NCBI GenBank assembly: GCA_048882485.1
Contig: JBHLRP010000029.1
Span: 1-39,493 of the forward strand
Reading direction: 5' to 3'
Length of the DNA stretch: 39,493 bases
DNA from: Candidatus Thorarchaeota archaeon
GTDB lineage: Archaea; Asgardarchaeota; Thorarchaeia; Thorarchaeales; Thorarchaeaceae
The notes under the pieces are model-generated. The model saw only the letters and a list, made by a program, of their open reading frames with translations. It was not told where the DNA came from and did no database searches. Within the stretch, counting starts at the first letter, position 1; every line of letters begins with the position of its first letter. Positions 4,564 through 36,319 of this stretch are shown piece by piece. Made by a program: the position numbers and the translations under genes.

Positions 4564-7500
4564 TTACCATTCGTAAGATGTACGACTTCGGCGTCGCCTA
4601 CGGACAAGACCGCCGATCATGGCAAGGACAAATCCTCCGCCTCCCAGAAGCATCAGCATGTCCATGTCAAGATCAAATCCTCCAGGATATGTGGTCTGTC
4701 TGCCACCGACAATGTAGCTACTGACCTGAGATTGATAGTCGCCACTCTGTGTATAGACCATAACCATGTAGTAGACCTCTGTCTGGTCCTCAAAAGGCGG
4801 AATTGTACCCACATAGGTATATTCGCCTTCCTTCGACATCGGATCAGACCACCAATTCTCGCCGTCTGAGCCGTACAGGAGGTCAACGCCATAGATTGGT
4901 TCAGTCTCAGAATAGACATCTACTCTCACTGTAACGGTGTCGGTCGCAGTAGGTGTGGCTATATCAAGCGTCAATGGACCGATGTACATGCCCTCGGGCA
5001 GTTCTGGTGCACCAGCCCTTGATACGTAGCTTACAAACACTGGGTCCTGGTAGACACTGTAGCCATCCCATTGAGGGAAGCCAATCGTCACGTAGAACAT
5101 GTTAGAGCCAAATGACCAGGAAGTCGCTGACTTGCCGTTATCTGACTCAAACGCTGTTCGGAAGGTACCAACAGGCGTGGTGTAGCTGACGACATCATAG
5201 GGAGCAGAAGTGTTCTTGCCCCAGTCATAGGTCACACCGCCCATGATCATCTTCGCGAACTGTGCTGTTGCCGTTTCAAACTCGAAGACATCTGCACTAA
5301 CGGTCATCTCATTGTCCGCGACGGATCCTTCTGCCTTGAAGGCGAAGTCGTGCATATTCACGTCTGCGAAGTAATTGAGAGCCAGAGAGCGGTTCTCCAA
5401 GTTATCGCGACCACCAATCATGTCGACATCCCAGTTGCCAACATAGTTGTCGACCTTGATGTCAGCGTAGTTGTTCAGTGACTCTGCGTCAATGTATCCC
5501 TGGAAGTGCACTAAGAAAGAAAGCTCATCGATAACCACCTCAGTGGGTCGCTGATCAAAGCCTCTCAGGTCAGAACCAGTCATGAAGCCATCGTACCAAC
5601 CCCAATAGCCATCCAGAGTGAATGGGAACGATGTCCCATTAATCTCATAGAAGTTCACGCCCCAAGTGACCTCATCCAAGAGGTCTAGGTGCATGTAGCC
5701 TTGAGAGTCGGGATTGCCATAGGCCTGGCCTGGAGTGACAAATCCAACGCTGCCGACAGAATCGGGAATCAGATAATGACTGAGTTCACCGCTGCCGGGG
5801 TCGAATAAGTCGACATCCATCTGACCGTTGTCGTTTAGATCTTCCCAGATCATTAGACCGCTATACTCATAGTGCATTCCGATACGAGCCCAGTGCTCTG
5901 TACCGAAGTCATCGTAACTTGTGCCATAGTCTTGACCCACGCCAAAGCTCATCCAAGTCCAAGTCTGCTCATTCGATGTGATCCAGTCCCAGCCATTGGC
6001 CTCTGCTTCAGCAACGAGATCTGCCCATGTAACGTTCTTGGCCATATGAGAGATGTCCCAGTATCCTGGGCGAGCATCGCCCTCAGCAGTCAAAAGAGTG
6101 TCTTTGACATTCTGCATTTCTACAGCATCGAGCTGAACCATATCAGTCGTGTACCAATAGAAGGTCTGTGACCATTCATAGGTCCAGGAGAAGATGTCTA
6201 GACCTAGCCAAGAATTGACATTCATCTCATCACCCCGGATCGTGCCATTCGGATCCCAGGTTATGTGGACATCCATTCGATCCCAGGTGTGTGTCCAGCT
6301 GTCAGTTGACGTGTACTGCTCCTGTACGAAGTACTGGTCATCCACTGTGTCAAGGTCTCCGTCAAGGTCAAGAGCACCGTTCTCAGGATTGATATCCCAA
6401 TTTTTCAAGCCCCACATGCCCCATTCGGGAACACCAATAATGAGATCGTAGAAGTTCTTGTAGACATCACTCTGGATTGGAGAGGGACCATATACTAGAG
6501 CATAGCCCCATCTCTGACGCATCCGTTCGATGCTCTCAAAGGCCGCAGTAGCAGTAACGGGAGTTCCAAGATAATCGAACTGGAGGACATCATGACCGCC
6601 CAACTGCATATTCAAGAATAGCGTTCCTGAATATGAAGCATTGTGGACTGTATACCCCCAGACATTCATGCCCCAGTAATAGATGAGATAGGTTTCTGAC
6701 ATGAAGTCAAAGACAGTGCCATTCATGGGACTTTCATGGGTATATACCAAATGCCTGCCAACTCGTGTGGCACTATCAAAGTCAGGAACCTCAAGATATG
6801 TGCCATTGATGAGACAATACTCATACCAGGACGAGTTGCCATCTTCGTAGTAGTATGGATAGTCCTGAGCAGAATAGAAGGCCACTCCAGAGTAATCATA
6901 TTCATTCAGAAGCATCGCATAGGAGTAGTTGGCAATCCACTTCGTCCCATTGAAGAGGTCAATGACATAGTAGCCATGCATTGAGTCCCAACGGGGCTGA
7001 CCCATCATGTCAGGAGTGTAGTACTGTATTGTTTCAACCTCAGAGAAGAGCAGATCGTTATTGAAAGCACCAACAACACCCTCGACTCCTACTCTAAGTG
7101 GAGCCCAGATGTCTGTCCCATTAGCAACAGAGTGGGGTACATAGGTCATGTCCAGAGAGTATGTTGCACCTGCAATGTCTGCAAAGTAGTCCAACGAGAT
7201 GTTGTATACTGGATAGGCCTTGTCATTGTAGAGCAGTGACTTGGTAGTTGGCACAAAGCCGCCCTCAGAGATTGTGTGACTCATCTCATAGTGCCAAGGA
7301 GCGTTTGCACCAGGATAGGGCATTTCGTGTTTAATACCTTCAGACTCGTGGAACCAGAACCGATGCTGGTCGTATGTAAACAGCATTGCTTCAGATCCCT
7401 CGAAGTCAGCTATGTAGTAGCGCTCGGGCCAGCTACAGATTTGCCACTTGCCTTCAATGAAGATATGGTAGTAGTAGTCTGTTTCGCTATAGACCATCTC

Positions 7501-10440
7501 GTAGAGATTGTGGTCAGAACCTTCAACAAAGTACATCCCATCTCTACTGCTCCAGTACCAGTTCGAAACGTTCAGCATCTTATCTGCACCGTATCTCATG
7601 AAATAGCCTATATTGTTGAAGTCTACCTCGACCTTGTCATATAGCTCAATAACGCTATTGCCCCAATAATATTCGAACCCACCTTGGTGTATTCCACCAT
7701 AGATATCGATCCAATAATTATAGGAATTAGTGCCATCAAACCAACCCCAATCGTAACTCATTGCTGTAAGGAATGAGTCTCCGAACAAAGATGTGACATT
7801 GTAGATGTAAACGACGTCTGTGTAGCTGACATAGATCTTTGTGCCATTCATTAGCTCATAGAAGTAGACATCTTTTCCAGTTGCTGGATCCATGTGACTA
7901 TAGAAGAACATCTCAGTCCAAGTAGTCCCACAGCCGGGGTCGAAGTTCTCTCGAACCTTGATTGGTAGCTTCTCGTCGTTGATAACGATGTATGGGCTTT
8001 CCTTTCCAATCATGAAGTCTGAACTCAGAGTTCCATTGAAGAAGGCAAGCTGGTTCTCAACTACTGGATCCATGTATACCTTATCACCGAAGTAGTCAAA
8101 GCTGTAGACCCATTCGCGGTCCCAGCTGAGGACCTCATGCTCGCCGTAGTTGCTTGAATAGTCCTCAAACCAGGTGTTGTTCATAAAGGCAAACTCCCAC
8201 CAGTAGTTGGTATCAGGTACATGAGGTGCCATCACAACATCAAACTCCAGGAAGAAGTCGCCGCCGTCGGTCCAGCTAGAGAATCCGGATGTTGTGCAGA
8301 AGTCTGCAGCAACCTCAGTTTCAGCGCTCTGGTATGGGATGTATTCGGTCTGCCATTCACCAGTAAGCTGGTTATAGTACCACCATTGCCAATGCCAACC
8401 TTCAATCTCGGCCCAGACCCATTCTTGGTACTCACCGTAGGTCCACGCCCAAGTGTTAGTGTCCTCATTGTATTCGTCATGCCAACCTGTGACATTGGAG
8501 TAGACATAATCCATGTACATACCCCAAGTGTAGTTGTGTTTCTCGGTGAAGTTGAACGCCCTCAATCTGGGACTTCCATCAACACCCATCTCAATCTCGT
8601 ATGTGAGCTCTGACCAACCATATTCTTCCTCTGTCCAGTAGCCATCATAGGCCCTAAGCATAAGACTGGCAGCGTCGATGTCATCAGCAATGTCACTACC
8701 GCCCTGAAGCCTTCCACGGACCTTGAATGGATCACCCTTGTCTACCTGGAACATCCATCCAGAAGGCTCAGAACCGTCGGACTTTAGGAGTCTGGCAATG
8801 GTCACAGGGGTCTCAATGGTGATTCGCCTAGCCATTTGATACTCGCTCTCAGTCTGGCGTGGTCTCTCACCACAAGTAGCTGGGCCATAGTACCAGTTGT
8901 CAGGACCAACAACTCTGTCAAAGAACTCGAAGTACATGCCTTCACCTGTCTTTGGCATCTTGTCTGTGAAGTGGCCGACGAAGTCTACTACCAGCTCGTT
9001 ATTTATCACCTGAGCGGTGCTCCTTGTCGTGTTGAGGTCGAAAAACACTGGAAGGTCCGCGGGGATAGGTTCTAGAACCATAATCTCCTCGTTCCAGTCC
9101 CATTCATTGATTATGTAATCATGTGGATAGCCATAGTAGGTGTATCCGTAGTAGCTCTCAAAGGAGGCAGTTGTCTGATTATAGATGTAGAAGAATTGGC
9201 GCTCGATCCAATAGGTCTCATTTGCCAAATACTTGTCATATGTCATTGTGACATTATTCCAATCCTCACGAATGACAGTCACATTGACTTCTTCAGAAAT
9301 GCCAAGCGATGTGTATTGATGCTGCTCATATGGGCCAAAGACCTGTTGCATGTAGGTCACCTGCTTGGATGCATTCCAGAGATATGTCTGCAAAAGAGCA
9401 GCATACTCCCAAGCACCCGTAGTGGTGACCATTTCATCATGCCAACCTGTGACATTAACAGTGACATACATATCATAGGGCATTCTGAAGCTAAGCATTG
9501 CATACTCAATGTCACCAGAGATGTTGAACCTCATCTTGAAGTCCGTACCCCTTGCTACTGAGTAGAGGGCATCTCCGGCCATGTCCAGCTTCTGAAGTGT
9601 GTAAGATCCTCCATAGGATGTAGCCCAAGCTATATCAGCATGCATTCCCACTGCTATTCCTGTGAACTCCCAGCCTGAACCGTAGTTGTAGGAACCAATC
9701 CAGTTCCACTGGTCATCCTCTACATTCATGTTCAGCTCATAGAGACCCAATGGGGCTTCATCATTGAAGCTCACAGCAAAAGTCAGATAGTATGCATCAG
9801 GATCACTTGTCATGGAACAGAAACCCGGATAAATGTCAATGAAACTCGGCATTGGTGGCGGCGGCTCATAGGGATCAATTGGATCAATCGGATAGGGCTC
9901 CTCGGTGTAGTTCCACTGACTGCTATATGCCCACCAATGATTGTCGATGTTCCAGCTGTCGTAGCTGAAATCGAAGTTTGCTGAGTAGTTGTAATCTTGA
10001 GTCATATACCATCCGTAGAACTGGACACGCCCAATGTCGGCTCCTTGAGTGAAGACGCCTCTGGGCACAGTCACCACGAACCTCAGGATCTCGCCTATCT
10101 CAGCATAGCTGTCCTTGGTCAGAAGGCTCCCATTGGCATGGAATATCTCAAATGAAGGCCTTGGACCAAACAGCCAATTCCTGTTGTTCCACGTCCACTC
10201 ATCACTAGTGCTGTTACTGTCCTGATTCCACCAGACATGGGTCCCATTCTCAGGCTCCTGACTGGTGATTGCAGATGGTGTGTAGTATAGCGGTGAAACG
10301 GCTGCCGTCATGGTGGCTGGGACAGCTGCAGTAGTTCCCGCATATGTCATTGAAAGCAGAAATAGCATAACAGCAACTAGAGAAAACAGTGCACGTCTGG
10401 ATTCTCGTCGTCGCAAATTGGTTAACTCCTTGCGCACCAT
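4564..10440 (-). CDS. Giant (1958 aa) secreted, C-terminally anchored, Trp/Tyr-rich surface glycoprotein
   Basis: Basic N-terminus plus hydrophobic signal region; many NxS/T sequons; C-terminal TM (MLMLLGGGGFVLAMIGGLV) followed by RRRRRSR. Confidence 0.85.
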   Translation of the reverse strand: MVRKELTNLRRRESRRALFSLVAVMLFLLSMTYAGTTAAVPATMTAAVSPLYYTPSAITSQEPENGTHVWWNQDSNSTSDEWTWNNRNWLFGPRPSFEIFHANGSLLTKDSYAEIGEILRFVVTVPRGVFTQGADIGRVQFYGWYMTQDYNYSANFDFSYDSWNIDNHWWAYSSQWNYTEEPYPIDPIDPYEPPPPMPSFIDIYPGFCSMTSDPDAYYLTFAVSFNDEAPLGLYELNMNVEDDQWNWIGSYNYGSGWEFTGIAVGMHADIAWATSYGGSYTLQKLDMAGDALYSVARGTDFKMRFNISGDIEYAMLSFRMPYDMYVTVNVTGWHDEMVTTTGAWEYAALLQTYLWNASKQVTYMQQVFGPYEQHQYTSLGISEEVNVTVIREDWNNVTMTYDKYLANETYWIERQFFYIYNQTTASFESYYGYTYYGYPHDYIINEWDWNEEIMVLEPIPADLPVFFDLNTTRSTAQVINNELVVDFVGHFTDKMPKTGEGMYFEFFDRVVGPDNWYYGPATCGERPRQTESEYQMARRITIETPVTIARLLKSDGSEPSGWMFQVDKGDPFKVRGRLQGGSDIADDIDAASLMLRAYDGYWTEEEYGWSELTYEIEMGVDGSPRLRAFNFTEKHNYTWGMYMDYVYSNVTGWHDEYNEDTNTWAWTYGEYQEWVWAEIEGWHWQWWYYNQLTGEWQTEYIPYQSAETEVAADFCTTSGFSSWTDGGDFFLEFDVVMAPHVPDTNYWWEFAFMNNTWFEDYSSNYGEHEVLSWDREWVYSFDYFGDKVYMDPVVENQLAFFNGTLSSDFMIGKESPYIVINDEKLPIKVRENFDPGCGTTWTEMFFYSHMDPATGKDVYFYELMNGTKIYVSYTDVVYIYNVTSLFGDSFLTAMSYDWGWFDGTNSYNYWIDIYGGIHQGGFEYYWGNSVIELYDKVEVDFNNIGYFMRYGADKMLNVSNWYWSSRDGMYFVEGSDHNLYEMVYSETDYYYHIFIEGKWQICSWPERYYIADFEGSEAMLFTYDQHRFWFHESEGIKHEMPYPGANAPWHYEMSHTISEGGFVPTTKSLLYNDKAYPVYNISLDYFADIAGATYSLDMTYVPHSVANGTDIWAPLRVGVEGVVGAFNNDLLFSEVETIQYYTPDMMGQPRWDSMHGYYVIDLFNGTKWIANYSYAMLLNEYDYSGVAFYSAQDYPYYYEDGNSSWYEYCLINGTYLEVPDFDSATRVGRHLVYTHESPMNGTVFDFMSETYLIYYWGMNVWGYTVHNASYSGTLFLNMQLGGHDVLQFDYLGTPVTATAAFESIERMRQRWGYALVYGPSPIQSDVYKNFYDLIIGVPEWGMWGLKNWDINPENGALDLDGDLDTVDDQYFVQEQYTSTDSWTHTWDRMDVHITWDPNGTIRGDEMNVNSWLGLDIFSWTYEWSQTFYWYTTDMVQLDAVEMQNVKDTLLTAEGDARPGYWDISHMAKNVTWADLVAEAEANGWDWITSNEQTWTWMSFGVGQDYGTSYDDFGTEHWARIGMHYEYSGLMIWEDLNDNGQMDVDLFDPGSGELSHYLIPDSVGSVGFVTPGQAYGNPDSQGYMHLDLLDEVTWGVNFYEINGTSFPFTLDGYWGWYDGFMTGSDLRGFDQRPTEVVIDELSFLVHFQGYIDAESLNNYADIKVDNYVGNWDVDMIGGRDNLENRSLALNYFADVNMHDFAFKAEGSVADNEMTVSADVFEFETATAQFAKMIMGGVTYDWGKNTSAPYDVVSYTTPVGTFRTAFESDNGKSATSWSFGSNMFYVTIGFPQWDGYSVYQDPVFVSYVSRAGAPELPEGMYIGPLTLDIATPTATDTVTVRVDVYSETEPIYGVDLLYGSDGENWWSDPMSKEGEYTYVGTIPPFEDQTEVYYMVMVYTQSGDYQSQVSSYIVGGRQTTYPGGFDLDMDMLMLLGGGGFVLAMIGGLVRRRRRSRTSYEW

Positions 10441-22981: not shown

Positions 22982-23572
22982 TCATTTCTTCTTTTTGGCG
23001 GGCTTCTTCTTGGGCTGCTTCTTGGGAGTAGAGCCACCAGAACGGCGGCGTGATACAAGAACAAGAATCAGGATGAGAGCAAGAGCAGATCCACCGATGA
23101 TAAGAAGCTTTGTCAAATCAAGATTAAAGGGCAGTCCTCCTCCGGGAATTGTCGTGAACACTATCTCGTTCTGCCAAAGCTCAACGGAGTCTCGATATGT
23201 CGAATCATCCTCATCACCTGTGCATGTATCAATAAGATAGCCGTTATAGAGAGTCTGCTTGTCATTACTCACGATGGTGAGTGCATTGCCATCTTGCGCA
23301 TCAGCTGTGCTCCCTGCCAGCGCAGTATACCCTGACAAGACTGTCAGTGTATCAGCATCGTCCGAAACGAACACATTGGATGTAAAGTTGACCGCATTGC
23401 GGTCATTAGGTTCGGTGAATATGTCATGAGATACATCCCATATGTACATGGATGGTTCCCCAGATAGTGTCGAAGAGAATTCCACACCCAATTTGAACCA
23501 AAGCGGATGCGTTGAGTCATTATCAATGTCAAAACATGACATCAGCAGTTTCCCTCCACCTAGGACTCGGCC
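22982..23572 (-). pseudogene. Probable 5'-truncated remnant of a membrane-anchored extracellular protein
   Basis: C-terminal TM and Lys-rich tail but no signal peptide. Protein-like VLGGGKLL continues upstream of ATG 23542 to an in-frame TGA at 23573-23575. Confidence 0.5.
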
Positions 23573-23752
23573 TCACAATTGCCAATATAAAGTCACTAGG
23601 AGAATAGTCCGCCTTTCAAGAAATGCTCGATTTTTCGAGGCAACTCTATCGGAGTAACATATTTGTGCTTGACAGGAGGTACCGTACGCACCCAACTCGG
23701 GGAACTAAGTGAGTCCGCCGTATATTTAGCTGTAACTGAGGTCGAGAATACG

Positions 23753-24490
23753 ATGGAAGAAGAATGTGCACAGTGGGAACGCCTCGCTGGCGAGTTCGCA
23801 GATAGTGAGAATTTCTACCAAGCAGCAAATCAATACAAACAAGCTGCAGGATGCTATCTCGACCGGGTTATTGAAATGACTCGCAAAGCAGCAGAGTATT
23901 ATCATATGTATGCAGAGGAAAAGGTTTCAGAGGATGACAACAAAGCGGCGGCTACAGGTTATTTCGAGGCTGCATCGCAGTATAAGCAGGTAAGTGAATT
24001 AGATACAGCATTGACTCTCTTCGAGCATGCAGCAGAATACGCCCTCAAGGAGGATTTGACCGAAACCGCTGCTCAAGCATACCTCTGGGCAGCGTTTGCA
24101 TGTCACAAGCTTGGAAATAGCGAATATTTCCTTACATGTGCTGAAAACATGGGCAATCTGTACGACAAGGCTGCAGAAAAAGCGGTTAAGGAAGGTAAGC
24201 CCCAAAGCGCGGTCATAGATCTTTCATTGGCAGCAATGGGATTAGCAACTATTGAGAAGGCTACGGAGGCAAAAGATAGGATAGAGAAAGCGCGTCGCGC
24301 AATTGAGAAGACAAGGGGAGAATGGCTTGAAACTCTTGTTTCATTTGTCGAGGCACTAACAGCAAATGAACTTGATGACGCTGATGACCATCTCAAGGCT
24401 TTCAAAGGTCAAGATACAATTCAGGAGCTAATGGGCGCCTGCCTAAACATCCTCCAAGAGAACCAGAAGAAACGGCGACGAGGAAAGTGA
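23753..24490 (+). CDS. SNAP (NSF attachment protein)-like TPR solenoid, alpha-SNAP-like
   Basis: Helical AAxxY/FxxAA repeats (QAANQYKQAA; AAATGYFEAASQYKQ; TAAQAYLWAA); ATG 23753 after GAGGT. Confidence 0.7.
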   Translation: MEEECAQWERLAGEFADSENFYQAANQYKQAAGCYLDRVIEMTRKAAEYYHMYAEEKVSEDDNKAAATGYFEAASQYKQVSELDTALTLFEHAAEYALKEDLTETAAQAYLWAAFACHKLGNSEYFLTCAENMGNLYDKAAEKAVKEGKPQSAVIDLSLAAMGLATIEKATEAKDRIEKARRAIEKTRGEWLETLVSFVEALTANELDDADDHLKAFKGQDTIQELMGACLNILQENQKKRRRGK

Positions 24491-24494
24491 GCTT

Positions 24495-25742
24495 TTAGGC
24501 GACTCTTACAGTTGAAGACTTCGTTATCTCCTCCCCAACTCTGCCATCAACAGCTTTGACGGTTACCACTTCATCTCCTATAGAGACTCCTCTGACAAAT
24601 ATCTGGAATCTCATTCGCTCCCTGGGGCCAATGAATTGGATGGTCTTCTCAATGCTTCCCAACGATATCTCAAGGCCGTCTGAAAGCTCAACTGTGACCT
24701 TTATGTTGTCTGCTGGCCCATCGCCCTCATTCACAAACTCTACGTCAAAGATAGATTCGTCGCCCAATGCACACGACAAACGTTCAGGTGTAAGATTCAT
24801 TTTCAAATCAGATGGAGCACGGGCGATTCGAAAATCGATTGCATTACTGATTTTATGGACCAATACGCTTTCTCCTTCAAGTGTTAAATTGAATGGTCCC
24901 ACTGACCCATCACCACTCAGAACAGGAAGAACCTCAAGGAGCCAAGAATCCTCTTTGCCGAGTCGCGGCTCGATGTCTGGCTCCTTTGTGAATTTCAAGC
25001 TCTTTGACAACGTGTATCTCCTATCCACCACCTTTACCGGAGCAGGACATTTGTAACGCAACTCAAACTCAATAGGAGTCTTGACATTGATCTCATTTTG
25101 AGCAGCTCCAGCCCATTCAATCACAACCTCGGTTTTTTGGGCTAGCTTTACAGACTCCGCAACAAACTTGACCAGTTCTCCTTCCGCAAGCTTTGGCTTA
25201 GCCGCGCTAATTGCTTTACTCACCACTTTGTCATCTGGGGAAGCGCCTTCACAAAGAACCTCTGCTGAAAGCTGTGCGAAGCTAAACATTGGCTCCTTCA
25301 CTGACGACCCGGAGAAACGCTTCTCAGCTTTTCGCGTGAGATTCACAGCAGTATTGAAGTTTCTGGCAGCAAGATAACATATGATTGCTACTGCAAGTGC
25401 CCTCAGCGAGCCTTTGTGTTTCTTCACTCTAAAGAGATGGTCAGAAGCCTCAGACAGAAGTGCGCCACCTTCATCAAACCTAGCATCTGACAGAAGTGCG
25501 TTAGCAGCCTCAGTCTTCATATCAGCACCTCGTGAGTGGTCATCAGCAATGAGTGCGCAATTAGCCGCCTCTCTGAAGTATTTCACAGCGAAATCGATTT
25601 CTCGTTCTTCAAGGAACAAGGCTGCCGCTTTCTCATACTCTGTGCTGGCATAGTCGGGGTAATCATCCTCCAGCTCCTTCAGTGCTTTCTCAACATGTTT
25701 CTTGGCTCTCTTCAGTGGATCTCTCCTGAGGAATCTAGACAT
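24495..25742 (-). CDS. Gamma-SNAP-like TPR solenoid fused to two Ig-like beta-sandwich domains
   Basis: N-terminal ~200 aa of helical repeats (YASTEYEKAAALF; AVKYFREAAN); C-terminal beta-rich VEFVNEGDGPADNIKVTVELSDGL (CARDB/DUF11-like); no signal peptide. Confidence 0.7.
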   Translation of the reverse strand: MSRFLRRDPLKRAKKHVEKALKELEDDYPDYASTEYEKAAALFLEEREIDFAVKYFREAANCALIADDHSRGADMKTEAANALLSDARFDEGGALLSEASDHLFRVKKHKGSLRALAVAIICYLAARNFNTAVNLTRKAEKRFSGSSVKEPMFSFAQLSAEVLCEGASPDDKVVSKAISAAKPKLAEGELVKFVAESVKLAQKTEVVIEWAGAAQNEINVKTPIEFELRYKCPAPVKVVDRRYTLSKSLKFTKEPDIEPRLGKEDSWLLEVLPVLSGDGSVGPFNLTLEGESVLVHKISNAIDFRIARAPSDLKMNLTPERLSCALGDESIFDVEFVNEGDGPADNIKVTVELSDGLEISLGSIEKTIQFIGPRERMRFQIFVRGVSIGDEVVTVKAVDGRVGEEITKSSTVRVA

Positions 25743-28334: not shown

Positions 28335-28366
28335 AAAAAAAAGAGAGGATAGGGGCTGAGCCCCTA
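28335..28366 (-). terminator. Hairpin plus T8 terminator of the Zn-ribbon operon
   Basis: TAGGGGC-TGA-GCCCCTA at 28350-28366, then TCCTCTCTTTTTTTT on the minus strand. Confidence 0.65.
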
Positions 28367-29332
28367 GATCTGTTCTTTGGCTTCTTTTCGAGAAACACCC
28401 TTGTACATTAAGACCAGTCCTAGAATAGCCATAAGGCTTCCACCAGCAAGACCAGCGCCTACAAATATCTCTAGCATAAATGCCAAAGCCAGGAGTGCAG
28501 CTCCTCCGAGAAGGAGTATGAGGCCAAATCCCAATCCTGCTGCACGAAATGCCATGGACCTTGGGTATTTGCTCTCGATAACATAGCCAGTTGAGGCGGC
28601 TACAGATGCTTTGTACTTGCTGTTGCCGTATTTGTATTCTAGTTCCCAAACCGGCACATGTACCAGAAAGGTTTCCCCTACAGTATTTGTATCATCACGT
28701 TCCTCAATCTTGTCTACTTCGGACATGATAAGGGCCGTCTGTCTGTCATATGCCATTTGCTTTGCCAGGCGTTTTGCCTCTTCTTCACCGATGTTGCTGT
28801 GAAGAACCTTGCCGTCAAACTCCTCTGCGTGTGCGTGGCTGAAGAACTCTTTTGCTCTAGTCGGGATGGGATGTCTCTTGACATCTTCATCAAGATCCTT
28901 CACGCCTGGGATACTGATCTCATGCCTTCTAGTGAATTGCCCTGACTCTGGCTTCCAGAAGTAGTCGATTCGCTTGTAGGCTCCTCTTCTCTGAGGCCAC
29001 TCGTCATAGAAGTTCGCATCTCTACCGAGACCTCGATAGGTTGAATTGGAGTCCACTCTGCTAATCCAGAAGGGATACCAGTACTGTTGATACTGAACGA
29101 AACGGGCCTTGGCAGGCAGATCAGCAGGAGCGCCTAGCTGTTTGGAAACCCAGTCCAGCAATGTAGTCTGAGCCTCTCCTTGATCAAAATGGACGCGTAT
29201 CATGTAGTGGTCAGTGAATTTCGCTCCCTCAGTAGTCTGTGCAGTACCGCAGTAAGGACAGACTAAAAGGACATCTCCACGACCAGCTTCAAAGTCTGCG
29301 TCGCAAAATGCACATCTTGCCAATTCAATCAC
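28364..29332 (-). CDS. Zn-ribbon membrane protein (CxxC..CPYCG, two C-terminal TMs)
   Basis: CAFC..CPYCG, YWYPFW, VHVPVW, two TMs; GTG 29332 overlaps the upstream TGA (GTGA). Confidence 0.8.
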   Translation of the reverse strand: MIELARCAFCDADFEAGRGDVLLVCPYCGTAQTTEGAKFTDHYMIRVHFDQGEAQTTLLDWVSKQLGAPADLPAKARFVQYQQYWYPFWISRVDSNSTYRGLGRDANFYDEWPQRRGAYKRIDYFWKPESGQFTRRHEISIPGVKDLDEDVKRHPIPTRAKEFFSHAHAEEFDGKVLHSNIGEEEAKRLAKQMAYDRQTALIMSEVDKIEERDDTNTVGETFLVHVPVWELEYKYGNSKYKASVAASTGYVIESKYPRSMAFRAAGLGFGLILLLGGAALLALAFMLEIFVGAGLAGGSLMAILGLVLMYKGVSRKEAKEQI

Positions 29333-30390
29333 CCCTTCTTCTCCCGCTGAGTCATAATCAGCACTCGGAACCCAGCTATTGCCATTATCCATCCAACCAC
29401 AGCAGCAAGTCCTCCTCCAAGTAGGAGAGCAGTTTCCGGTTCAGCCAGCATCGCTTGAGTGTATGCGAGCTCTCCACCGATTAGCGCCAGCACGATTCCG
29501 ATAAGACCCACCAGAGTCCACATCGCGCGCTGTGCTTTAGTGATTGGAATTTCACCCAGAACGACCTTTCCACTATGCCCATCTAGCGCGGCCTTGTATA
29601 GGTCGCCTTCAAATTTGTAGCGTACTAGAGCAAAAGGTGCTTGCAGATAAGTGGTGCCACGGACTTCAGTGTTCGTTCTACAGTCAAATAGCTCGCTGAG
29701 TCCACCTGCGGCTTGCGATCGATGTCGATCGGCCACTCGACCATGGATGGTCTTCTCGAACTCCTCCTCACCTATCTCTGCATTTAGAAGGGTCATGTCC
29801 GTTTCTTCATTATTCACAAAGGACCGTAGGTCCTTTATCTTCTCAAAATTATAAGGCTCTGTTTTCTTGAGTTCGACCTTTTCCAGGTACTCTTCAAGTC
29901 CATAGAACCTGGCTCCTTTCCTTGCTAGTAATCGCTCATCTGTATCGGTATGAATCTCATCCTGCACAGGGACATAGCCTGTCTCATAGTCCGTATAGGT
30001 CTCAGTTCTTGTATTGCCATCAGAGTCGCGAACGGTTCTTGTCTTCTGAACTGGAACCTGCACAGTCTTGTAGCCTTTGTACCATGAGTCAGCTTTGACC
30101 TTAGCCGTCCAGACAGGCACGAAAAGTAGCTTGTTCTCGACGACCTGAGCCTTCTGAACAAGGGACTTGTTCATGCCCTTGTTCTTGTCAAGGAATTCTC
30201 GGAAGCCACCTAGACGTTCATCAAGGTCTACGCCGGACTCCATGAGGTGGTCGCCAATGGCCTTCCCCTCAATAGTGGTCGTGCTACCGCAATAAGTGCA
30301 GGTTATCACGACATCGTCAGGGCCGGTCTTGACGTTGCCGCTGCAGACGGGACACTTGAATACGTCCACTGCTTGTGCTTCAGAACTCAT
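29329..30390 (-). CDS. Zn-ribbon membrane protein, paralog of the downstream gene
   Basis: CPVC..CTYCG, LFVPVW, YLQAPF..Y.F...Y...DGHSG...GEIP, two TMs; GGAG RBS. Confidence 0.82.
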   Translation of the reverse strand: MSSEAQAVDVFKCPVCSGNVKTGPDDVVITCTYCGSTTTIEGKAIGDHLMESGVDLDERLGGFREFLDKNKGMNKSLVQKAQVVENKLLFVPVWTAKVKADSWYKGYKTVQVPVQKTRTVRDSDGNTRTETYTDYETGYVPVQDEIHTDTDERLLARKGARFYGLEEYLEKVELKKTEPYNFEKIKDLRSFVNNEETDMTLLNAEIGEEEFEKTIHGRVADRHRSQAAGGLSELFDCRTNTEVRGTTYLQAPFALVRYKFEGDLYKAALDGHSGKVVLGEIPITKAQRAMWTLVGLIGIVLALIGGELAYTQAMLAEPETALLLGGGLAAVVGWIMAIAGFRVLIMTQREKKG

Positions 30391-34687: not shown

Positions 34688-36319
34688 TTGGCTGCTGAGC
34701 AATACCTTTTCGTTGGTATTCTCATAATAGGAGCTGGTTTGGCCAAGTTTGCTGAGAAATATCGATTTCCCTATCCAATCCTTCTAATCATTTCAGGCAT
34801 AGTTCTCGCTCAATTATTCCCAAATCAAGGATTCGTAGAATCAATAGGTATTGAGTTCGTTGCACAGCTAACACTTGCAGCAGTGTTATTCTATGCTGGA
34901 CTCACATTGAATATTAAAGAGCTAAGATTATCGCTAGGCCCTGTCCTGCTCCTTGCAACTCTGGGAGTTCTGCTGACATCCATAATAGCTGGCGTAACAA
35001 TTGCCCTCATTCTTGGTTCCAGCATAGTAGTTGTAGCCGCTGCATACCTAATTGGAGCGATTCTCTCCCCCACAGATCCTGCAGCCCTCTTTTCAGTTCT
35101 AGAAACTGGCGGCGTCAGGGTTAAGCGTAAGCTCTTTGCAATACTTGAAGGAGAAGCAGTGTTTAACGATGCTACAAGTGTTGTGCTAGTCTTGACGGTA
35201 TTTGAGCCATTAGTGGTACTTGCGCTAGCACAAGAATGGAGTCTCGTAATCCTAGATTTCATCTTGAGTATGGGATTGGGAGTTCTTATTGGATATGCAA
35301 TGGCATATGGGATTGGATGGCTACTTCATATAACCGGAGGAGACACGGATATTGCGATTTTGACGGCGGCAACTCCAATACTGACCTATGGAATCGGCGA
35401 GGCAATGTCCTTGCTCCTAGAAGGAGCTAATCTGCCAGGAGTCCACCCTGGAGCTTTAGCTTGTGTCTTTACAGGGATTTTCATGGCAAATGCCAAGCGA
35501 ATAGGCCTAGAGATTCTACCCCAGAAATCCATGCGAGGTGTCATGAAGAATGTTTCATTTGCGTTTGAGATTGTCATCTTCATTCTACTCGGATTCACAC
35601 TGGATACAATGTTTCTGATATCAAATCCAGGCACCGTAATCTCTGGTATCGTAGTCGCTCTCCTTGTAATTCTCGTTGCAAGACCAGTATCAGTATTCCT
35701 TGTTACATCTCCGGATCGAAGCATGGGAGTTCGCGATAGGTTCTTCCTAAGTTGGGCAGGTGTGAAGGGTGTTGCAAGTGCAGCATTAGCTGCCATTGCT
35801 GTTTCCGTCATCACAGAATATCAGATAACGGATTACGACTTGTTGAGCAACCAAATCAATTCGATTGTCTTCATAGTTTTAATGATAAGTCTCGCGTTGC
35901 AAGGGCTCACGACTCCCATTCTGGCAACCAAACTCAACCTCCTGGAAGAGGTTGACCTTGCTGAGGAGATATCTGCACACAGAGATGCGACGAGATATGC
36001 ATTGCTTCAGATGGTCGATTTGTATACTGAAGGGAAGATACCTCAGGACTTGTATTTGCGAATGAAGGCCGAACTTGAAGAAGAAATCTTTACTCTTGAG
36101 GACGAACTCAGGAGATTAGTCACAGATAAGAGAGCGCGTGAACAAGAACTCGAAATCAGAGAGTTAGTGCTCTCGAATAAACTCACCTACCTACAGAATG
36201 AGTACGAGGGAGGAAGACTCTCTGATATTGCATATGATGACGAAAGGAGCGAGATTGAGGCCGAAATTGATGACATCATGATGAGGCTGAAACTCACTCG
36301 AGAGGGCAGACATGCCTAG
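34688..36319 (+). CDS. nhaP: CPA1-family cation:proton antiporter (NhaP-like) with C-terminal helical tail
   Basis: GAILSPTDPAA, LEGEAVFNDA, ARP, WAGVKG, QGLT; GAGGTG RBS. Confidence 0.9.
   Translation: MAAEQYLFVGILIIGAGLAKFAEKYRFPYPILLIISGIVLAQLFPNQGFVESIGIEFVAQLTLAAVLFYAGLTLNIKELRLSLGPVLLLATLGVLLTSIIAGVTIALILGSSIVVVAAAYLIGAILSPTDPAALFSVLETGGVRVKRKLFAILEGEAVFNDATSVVLVLTVFEPLVVLALAQEWSLVILDFILSMGLGVLIGYAMAYGIGWLLHITGGDTDIAILTAATPILTYGIGEAMSLLLEGANLPGVHPGALACVFTGIFMANAKRIGLEILPQKSMRGVMKNVSFAFEIVIFILLGFTLDTMFLISNPGTVISGIVVALLVILVARPVSVFLVTSPDRSMGVRDRFFLSWAGVKGVASAALAAIAVSVITEYQITDYDLLSNQINSIVFIVLMISLALQGLTTPILATKLNLLEEVDLAEEISAHRDATRYALLQMVDLYTEGKIPQDLYLRMKAELEEEIFTLEDELRRLVTDKRAREQELEIRELVLSNKLTYLQNEYEGGRLSDIAYDDERSEIEAEIDDIMMRLKLTREGRHA

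Follow-up and report, generated by a model that had tools for sequence, protein, structure and literature searches.

Two convergent genes at positions 23753 to 25742 of a 39,493-nucleotide stretch of Thorarchaeota DNA (contig JBHLRP010000029.1, hereafter the window) encode real but distant relatives of the SNAP fold, most likely general scaffolds from the gene pool that later gave SNAP. The contig belongs to a metagenome-assembled genome of 3.96 Mb that is 90.5% complete. A preliminary description of the sequence had presented the pair, called here gene 1 and gene 2, as an alpha-SNAP-like and a gamma-SNAP-like protein jointly serving an NSF-like ATPase. Our analyses support a SNAP-type helical module in both proteins, with gene 2 providing the clearer case, but they do not support the function or the alpha/gamma assignment. 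The two proteins are probably paralogous scaffolds of a SNAP-fold module that was expanded in Asgard archaea, and neither is a working SNAP. The elements of the locus are as follows.

Gene 1, 23753 to 24490, plus strand: 245 amino acids (aa), all-helical, with nine sheet helices (residues 1-184), a three-helix C-terminal bundle (190-244) and a basic tail; a stand-alone SNAP-type solenoid module (AlphaFold pLDDT 94.2; Pfam SNAP 27.5 bits).
Gene 1 C-terminal helical bundle (residues 190-244), 24320 to 24484, plus strand: alignable with both the SNAP bundle and residues 151-202 of gene 2; without the terminal leucine motif.
Gap between the convergent stop codons, 24491 to 24494: 4 bp, ordinary for this genome.
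Gene 2, 24495 to 25742, minus strand: 415 aa, a SNAP-fold solenoid with bundle followed by two immunoglobulin (Ig)-like domains; many Asgard lineages carry the family in a single copy.
Gene 2 N-terminal basic/aromatic octapeptide MSRFLRRD (family consensus MFKFLKSD), 25719 to 25742, minus strand: lies on the apolar membrane loop of Sec17 in one structural register; a candidate membrane anchor.
Gene 2 helical domain (residues 9-202), 25137 to 25718, minus strand: seven sheet helices and the bundle, with SNAP/HAP40 geometry.
Gene 2 first Ig-like beta-sandwich (residues 205-307), 24822 to 25130, minus strand: carries a conserved GP motif.
Gene 2 second Ig-like beta-sandwich (residues 313-414), 24501 to 24806, minus strand: DUF11/CARDB/TRAP-beta/TRAPPC13_C type, with an invariant N338.

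Architecture of the two proteins

The ATG start of gene 1 fits its homologues, in which M1 is nearly invariant; an upstream TTG start at 23663 was considered and dropped, given the starts of the homologues. The AlphaFold model of gene 1 comprises twelve helices, nine in the sheet and three in the closing bundle. That of gene 2 begins with a flexible 8-residue segment, followed by seven sheet helices, a three-helix bundle that runs to residue 202 and the two beta-sandwiches. The locus had been described as two soluble solenoid genes. Both genes are real, but residues 205-414 of gene 2 form two beta-sandwiches (pLDDT 92.9) that had been overlooked. All the motifs quoted at the time are present, at residues 65-79, 86-96, 105-110 and 195-217 of gene 1 and 29-43, 80-91 and 119-132 of gene 2. 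Inspection by eye revealed no evident signal peptide or transmembrane stretch in either protein.

Pfam searches with the Ig region of 44 gene 2 family members gave matches to DUF11 (12), TRAP-beta (11), CARDB (8) and TRAPPC13_C (8), which are about level. Outside Asgard archaea, the nearest Atlas shapes to the Ig pair are bacterial DUF11/CARDB proteins. No TRAPP chain was found in the PDB with the gene 2 Ig profile, a result that leaves room for kinship. Gene 1 carries a net charge of -15, and its surface glutamates are conserved.

The helical half of gene 2 has SNAP geometry

The strongest SNAP-specific evidence is the geometry of gene 2 together with its bundle. A profile built from 32 Asgard members matched gamma-SNAP (E value 2e-9), Sec17 (1.5e-7) and alpha-SNAP (1.7e-6). 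SNAPs (2e-9 to 2e-5) were its best natural matches, and the next other tetratricopeptide repeat (TPR) protein followed at 0.005. The match crosses the SNAP bundle, with profile positions 46-182 on Sec17 131-266. A deeper profile of the N-terminal part gave alpha-SNAP at 1e-13, Sec17 at 8e-12 and gamma-SNAP at 2e-11; the next natural protein was archaeal PH0952 (4e-9), and designed consensus TPRs score higher by summing repeats. The Pfam SNAP model (PF14938) gave 16.2 bits on gene 2 itself, relative to a cut-off of 25, and 27 of the 32 family members match it at E 0.05.

The gene 2 model superimposes on the Sec17/gamma-SNAP sheet with Z scores of 16 to 18.7 and root mean square deviations (rmsd) of 2.4 to 2.6 Å over 143 to 151 residues, the best superposition being on Sec17 (Z 18.7, 2.4 Å over 147 residues). 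When the bundle is included, residues 5-206 lie on Sec17 89-292 at 3.7 Å over 198 residues, and the fit to gamma-SNAP is 3.0 Å over 191 residues. HAP40 was matched with a Z score of 15.8 and 2.7 Å over 186 residues. Overall, SNAP and HAP40 fall at 2.4 to 3.7 Å, versus 4.6 to 6.7 Å for LGN. In the published benchmark for HAP40 and SNAP, Z scores are 16 to 18 at 2.5 to 3 Å, and the next best protein reaches a Z score of 13 at 5 Å (PMC7725122). Gene 2 reaches the published values and thus compares with SNAP by the same standard that makes HAP40 a SNAP homologue. Judged from the models, the helical half of gene 2 is clearly a SNAP-like repeat with a SNAP-like C-terminal bundle, and the predicted module groups structurally with eukaryotic SNAP and HAP40.

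Gene 1 is a looser match, and the SNAP model is not specific

The SNAP-type repeat and bundle of gene 1 make a weaker case than those of gene 2. Its Pfam SNAP match (cut-off 25) covers just positions 23-117 of the 282 in the profile. Foldseek ranked Sec17 first, with TM-scores of 0.3 to 0.5. Structural re-alignment placed residues 1-245 loosely on Sec17 46-291, and SNAPs were matched with Z scores of 13.8 to 14.8 and 5.1 to 5.7 Å over 214 to 222 residues. Gene 1 ties with LGN by structure, the two Z ranges being 13.9 to 14.1 and 14.0 to 14.8. The earlier claim of a SNAP-type repeat with a non-TPR C-terminal bundle is thus clear for gene 2, in both profile and structure, and weaker for gene 1, with its fit at 5 to 6 Å. 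The SNAP alignments proposed earlier stood in part. For gene 1, the bundle motif indeed falls on the alpha-SNAP bundle, whereas AAATGYFEAASQYKQ pairs with helices of the 20-residue repeat other than the one named. For gene 2, the motifs match gamma-SNAP, but they do so in two registers that differ by about 80 residues.

The Pfam SNAP model is not specific. It also matches proteins of Bacillus, Deinococcus and Methanosarcina, as well as five proteins of this genome. A MalT-like TPR protein encoded on contig C6 outscores gene 1 on this model, and it also does so on an alpha-SNAP profile that we built (5.5e-7 versus 5.8e-4), for which gene 2 is not listed. Long archaeal proteins, one of them with a member in an Altiarchaeales cluster, reach 83 to 110 bits on Pfam SNAP, and two of them end in BatD/TRAP-beta Ig domains. 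Among them are P0347/P0422 (Altiarchaeales cluster) and P0327; these archaeal proteins, non-Asgard or unassigned, are about 840 aa long, and in them long SNAP-type repeats precede BatD/TRAP-beta-type Ig domains. Such proteins indicate that neither the repeat type nor the repeat-then-Ig order is confined to Asgard archaea and eukaryotes. Longer SNAP-repeat proteins also occur in f9/f24 (511 to 554 aa; L129:3163-4695) and in this genome (620 aa; G000:C6:84427-86286), with 50.6 and 38 bits on Pfam SNAP, above both window genes.

The two modules are homologous to each other

The gene 1 family and the N-terminal part of the gene 2 family were aligned with hhalign at a probability of 98.1% (E 9e-14), colinearly, with positions 41-238 on 7-202 and the bundle included. 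Toward alpha-SNAP, the corresponding values were 60.8% for gene 1 and 96.6% for gene 2, from profiles of different depths. A tree of the module was computed from 47 rows comprising gene 1, gene 2, five animal alpha-SNAPs and the other carriers, with neither gamma-SNAP nor HAP40. It did not resolve, and we therefore refer to proteins of the genome families f7 and f19 (support 82/74) as the closest relatives of gene 1 and not as its proven orthologues.

Key SNAP functional sites are missing

In Sec17 numbering, the functional sites of SNAP are the apolar N-terminal loop (F21/M22), the basic residues K159/K163 and the C-terminal L291/L292 (PMC5540461, PMC2139964). The NSF-stimulating C-terminal leucine (L294 in alpha-SNAP, L291/L292 in Sec17) and acidic tail were defined on alpha-SNAP (PMC5540461, PMC2139964). 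This terminus is absent from the gene 1 family, whose members end in K/R, with a mean charge of +3.2 over the last 10 residues, a terminal leucine in 1 of 94 and a penultimate leucine in none of the 94. In gene 2, the bundle runs into the Ig domains. At the sites aligned with the basic SNARE-binding residues (K122/K163 in alpha-SNAP, K159/K163 in Sec17), gene 1 has T and A, as far as the register in a repeat can be trusted; its first loop is short and polar, without the apolar membrane residues. Position 74 of gene 2 corresponds to Sec17 K159 or alpha-SNAP K122, depending on the register, and is E/D in 86 of 99 members; position 78 is mostly A/E, and one basic match (R114) appears in one register, with the same uncertainty of register. 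The N-terminal F-L-K/R peptide of gene 2 lies on the Sec17 loop in one register (residues 1-165 on Sec17 23/24-188), and the profile alignment starts at the SNAP loop. Of 99 Thorarchaeota members, 95 retain the peptide, as do several other lineages.

The genome contains two canonical Cdc48s, both with intact Walker A/B pairs, and we found in it no further two-ring paralogue that is NSF-like. No match to the SNARE family PF05739 was detected in this genome, given its estimated completeness. This is in line with reports of SNARE candidates in Heimdallarchaeia only (10.64898/2026.10.19.760048). By the tests that define working SNAPs, neither gene 1 nor gene 2 is one. The proposed joint adaptor module for an NSF-like ATPase is not supported, in view of the missing NSF-activating tail, the canonical Cdc48s, the lack of a SNARE match, the opposite strands of the two genes and their occurrence in different families outside Thorarchaeia.

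Gene order and phyletic range

In 47 of 48 Thorarchaeota loci, gene 1 and gene 2 lie next to each other, which confirms that the pair is conserved in relatives, and a complete Thorarchaeota genome shows the same gene order across the whole region. Around the pair lie genes for HMG-CoA reductase, Nre, tRNA synthetases and an AlaX-type editing protein. Of 47 loci, 40 have HMG-CoA reductase ahead of gene 1, and AlaX comes ahead of gene 2 in 29 of 29. These neighbor links are kept equally well, and the tail-to-tail pair is therefore a fixed piece of Thorarchaeota gene order and not evidence of a module. Convergent genes are not cotranscribed. The reported spacing of 4 bp between the stops was confirmed, but the gap is not beyond chance: 38% of the 451 convergent pairs of open reading frames (ORFs) in this genome have stops no more than 4 bp apart, and the median is 10. 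In the sister family, 7 kb separate the two genes, which lie on the same strand.

The gene 2 family has the wider range. It was found in 57 of 60 genomes of family f1, 48 of 55 of f9, 16 of 19 of f12, 17 of 17 of f22, 5 of 5 of f24 and 3 of 3 of f21, and also in f10, f18 and f28, nearly always in a single copy. Its members occur under the depositor labels Hel-, Hod-, Heimdall-, Odin- and Ranarchaeia. Full-length relatives of gene 1 were found in f1, f2, f7 and f19 only, and both genes in f1 and f2 only. Among the genomes searched, the lineages nearest eukaryotes have gene 2 but no full-length gene 1. Neither a gene 2 neighbor shared across families nor a Cdc48 neighbor was found in about 20 non-Thorarchaeota genomes. 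A gene of 241 aa that converges on a distant homologue of gene 2 was examined as a possible gene 1 relative and rejected, as it encodes a membrane protein. Two gene 2 homologues are interrupted by a stop or split (G249:C1:1503903-1504508, G077:C60:7193-8428), possibly through assembly errors. In a lineage labeled Heimdallarchaeota (L158:337-11002, L155), the gene 2 homologue has three Rag/Arf-type GTPase genes and a 132-aa gene as neighbors, together with a convergent gene whose product begins with a degenerate GTPase-like segment.

A module probably reused as a scaffold

The explanation that we favor is that gene 1 and gene 2 are old paralogues, both derived from a single module in which a helical bundle closes a SNAP-type helical sheet. 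Asgard archaea would have reused this module with different tails: none in gene 1, two Ig domains in gene 2, and an Ig domain with a coiled coil or a winged helix in other genes of this genome. Gene 2 would then most likely act as a two-ended cytoplasmic adaptor, the concave face of its solenoid binding one partner and the Ig domains another, and its N-terminal basic/aromatic peptide would hold the protein at the membrane in the lineages that have it. Gene 1 would be a soluble acidic scaffold; its net charge and conserved surface glutamates suggest that it probably binds a basic partner. A complex prediction for the two proteins returned a score of 0.01 and was not used as evidence either way. 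It is possible, though doubtful, that the gene 2 family is the archaeal sister of SNAP and HAP40, that is, a membrane-anchored solenoid-plus-bundle adaptor that existed before NSF and SNAREs diversified. Loss of the Ig domains would then have led to SNAP, whereas a relative might have retained these domains, which would now form the arm of the large TRAPP subunits.

Several results weigh against the favored scaffold explanation. In a wide structural search with gene 2, LGN/Pins obtained a higher Z score than Sec17 (17.1 versus 15.2), albeit with an rmsd of 4.6 versus 2.6 Å. The higher score between gene 1 and gene 2 comes partly from a deeper profile (Neff 7.7, versus 1.9 for SNAP). In the module tree, the backbone is not resolved, alpha-SNAP is not placed and gene 2 does not form one clade, so that the tree was not used for orthology. 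Finally, the N-terminal peptide of gene 2 is missing in many lineages, and 11% of all the proteins that the genome encodes have a loose version of it.

Alternative explanations

The pair might simply belong with generic prokaryotic long-helix TPR proteins of the MalT/TPR_12/AdAR type, sharing with SNAP a 20-residue alanine/aromatic repeat and a convergent geometry but no special link. The control matches of Pfam SNAP, in bacteria, in Methanosarcina and within this genome, speak for this, as do the MalT-like protein that beats gene 1 on both SNAP profiles, the Altiarchaeales and other archaeal proteins with two terminal Ig cases, the tie of gene 1 with LGN together with Pins outscoring Sec17 and gamma-SNAP by sequence, and the bacterial shapes closest to the Ig pair. 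We nevertheless regard it as unlikely, as the SNAP matches of gene 2 are separated from other TPRs by a gap (2e-9 to 2e-5 versus 0.005) and run through the bundle, and its rmsd to SNAP and HAP40 is well below that to LGN. Gene 2 could also be a miniature forerunner of the large TRAPP subunits (TRAPPC8/9/10/11), in which a solenoid likewise precedes Ig domains (PMC10152722), and would then work as a membrane-tethering arm for regulators of small GTPases. Its top Foldseek matches are yeast TRAPPII chains (7u06_A and 7u05_A, E 6e-11), probably Trs120 judging from chain length, and, among eukaryotic Atlas clusters compared by features, a TRAPPC11-like one comes first (score 0.80), which is no more than a lead. 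TRAPPC13_C is matched by 8 of the 44 members, two Bet3 genes are present in this genome, and gene 2 lies among Rag/Arf-type GTPase genes in one Heimdall-labeled lineage. Against these points, the TRAPP matches have TM-scores of 0.30 to 0.34, rmsd of 13 to 22 Å and identities of 7 to 10%, and TRAPP chains are absent from the top 50 of the gene 2 structural re-alignments, which by itself leaves kinship conceivable. All full-length members start with the solenoid and thus lack an N-terminal GTPase-like domain, and they have two Ig domains instead of four. Bet3 detectable by Pfam (PF04051; a divergent V4R-type would escape) is restricted to f1, f2 and f16, whereas gene 2 is near-universal in f9, f12, f22 and f24, and the GTPase neighborhood was seen in that one lineage only. 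By the tests of that family, gene 2 is not a TRAPP subunit, and we rate such a descent as improbable.

A relaxed form of the initial proposal would make one or both proteins adaptors that bring substrates to an archaeal Cdc48, in a precursor of the SNAP-NSF couple. The closest relatives of gene 1, those of f7 and f19, form part of clusters of three to four solenoid genes that lie within 5 to 6 kb of a Cdc48 gene in the six genomes with a long enough contig; a 592-aa paralogue lies 4 to 8 kb from one Cdc48 in most Thorarchaeota genomes; and a preprint proposes Cdc48 as the disassembler of archaeal SNAREs (10.64898/2026.10.19.760048). However, the f7/f19 Cdc48 is canonical, has a tail of the proteasome-docking type and falls in a clade without a Thorarchaeota member, and these genomes carry three to four Cdc48 genes. 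Arginine-synthesis genes share the cluster, so that gene order alone can explain the proximity. The basic, leucine-free tail of gene 1, the lack of a SNARE match in this genome and the position of the window pair, which is not beside Cdc48, also disagree with it, and we consider it slightly less probable still than descent of the TRAPP arm. It is extremely improbable that gene 1 is a true orthologue of alpha-SNAP and gene 2 of gamma-SNAP, with a split older than eukaryotes. With narrow Thorarchaeota profiles, the best natural match of gene 1 is indeed alpha-SNAP (E 4e-4) and that of gene 2 gamma-SNAP (E 8e-4), and a broad gene 1 profile still favors mammalian alpha-SNAP (3e-8). With that broad profile, however, Pins scores above yeast alpha-SNAP (Sec17) and gamma-SNAP, and the gamma preference of gene 2 is lost with the deep profile. 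In the wide structural search, the top match of gene 1 was gamma-SNAP and the best SNAP for gene 2 was Sec17, the reverse of the labels. The colinearity of the two modules and the lineages nearest eukaryotes, with their gene 2 and no full-length gene 1, point the same way, and the assignment of gene 1 as alpha-type and gene 2 as gamma-type was abandoned.

Other carriers of the module and window context

This genome has further carriers of the module: a 592-aa protein with an Ig domain, a 276-aa protein with a winged-helix-like tail and the 620-aa repeat protein. The 592-aa paralogue (G000:C3:143836-145611; L132:4837-6612) combines the SNAP-type module with one Ig domain and a long helical tail, and is present in 36 of 41 Thorarchaeota genomes. 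The Cdc48 gene near which it usually lies (C3:135497-137722, divergent, 4 to 8 kb away) is part of a conserved gene order. The 276-aa protein (G000:C6:47556-48383; L133:4557-5384) has a solenoid-plus-bundle and a tail that looks winged-helix-like by eye, a PCI-like layout, without a Pfam hit; in three genomes, a gene for a small GTPase is located some 2 kb away. The f7/f19 cluster (L125:449-8338, G063:C1:1348448-1356337; also L123, L126, L127 and L115) contains argH/argG, up to four SNAP-type solenoid genes, a gene for an ACT-domain regulator and a canonical Cdc48 gene. One of its solenoid genes is the closest gene 1 relative, and one encodes a PCI-like winged helix and a zinc ribbon. Families f7 and f19 are probably Jordarchaeia. 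In G063 (C1:2248699-2249802), the N domain of Cdc48 is duplicated in a 240-aa ORF beside a full Cdc48.

Some other genes of the window were noted. Between HMG-CoA reductase and gene 1, at 22982-23542 on the minus strand, lies a 186-aa gene whose product has a C-terminal membrane helix and a basic tail; it occurs in 2 of 47 related loci. A Na+/H+ exchanger gene (34688-36319, plus strand) shows a C-terminal CdvA-like coiled-coil match that is below the cut-off (E 6e-6). A 1958-aa protein (4564-10440, minus strand) has no Pfam match at E 0.01. Two overlapping tandem genes (28364-30390, minus strand; 353 and 342 aa) each have a weak RING/zinc-ribbon match at the start, and similar-sized genes occupy their place in the complete Thorarchaeota genome.

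Comparison with known systems

SNAP, an adaptor, is among the core factors of eukaryotic vesicle fusion. We found no described archaeal SNAP relative, and no paper on these proteins, in the open literature that we searched, which excluded the supplements of two structure-based Asgard catalogues; some of the proteins already carry a Pfam SNAP label from automatic annotation. In a recent preprint, the factor that takes apart the SNARE complexes of Heimdallarchaea is left open. A conserved, single-copy Asgard protein with SNAP geometry is a concrete candidate for testing SNARE disassembly. The results suggest that SNAP arose by recruitment of a general scaffold module. The window pair itself provides no evidence for an early alpha/gamma split or for a trafficking operon.

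The long-helix TPR repeats of LGN/Pins, BtubC and MalT/PH0952-type proteins resemble those of the pair, and for gene 1 these proteins tie with SNAP. Compared with gene 2, they and the Altiarchaeales proteins have a larger rmsd and many more repeats; the Altiarchaeales SNAP-repeat proteins share the repeat-then-Ig order with gene 2. TRAPPC8/9/10/11 (Trs85/120/130) and TRAPPC13 are, like gene 2, cytoplasmic proteins with a solenoid followed by Ig-like domains, and they provide the weak TRAPPC13_C matches and the top Foldseek rank. Unlike gene 2, with its two Ig domains, the large TRAPP subunits have a GTPase-like N-terminal domain and four Ig domains; the similarity is at a TM-score of 0.3, and the range of gene 2 does not follow that of Bet3.

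The SNAP family (Sec17/alpha-SNAP, PDB 1qqe, 9nlu and 9ojz; gamma-SNAP, 2ifu; PF14938) shares with the pair alanine/aromatic helices of about 20 residues, a twisted sheet and a closing bundle, and with gene 2 the superposition at 2.4 to 3.7 Å and a possible equivalent of the apolar membrane loop at the N terminus. SNAP has about 292 aa, compared with 203 for the gene 2 module and 245 for gene 1, which fits at 5 to 6 Å only. It also differs from the pair in its C-terminal leucine and acidic tail and its SNARE-binding lysine; gene 2 adds two Ig domains, and neither NSF nor a SNARE was found in this genome. HAP40, the SNAP-derived solenoid that partners huntingtin, falls in the same fold group as gene 2 and works as a scaffold without NSF (PMC7725122). 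Each of its hairpins has been shown to match best the hairpin at the equivalent place in SNAP. It differs from gene 2 in being restricted to eukaryotes, in its six hairpins and in its lack of Ig domains. Archaea are not known to have a huntingtin-like partner. Nevertheless, as HAP40 works without NSF, the SNAP fold can serve another function.

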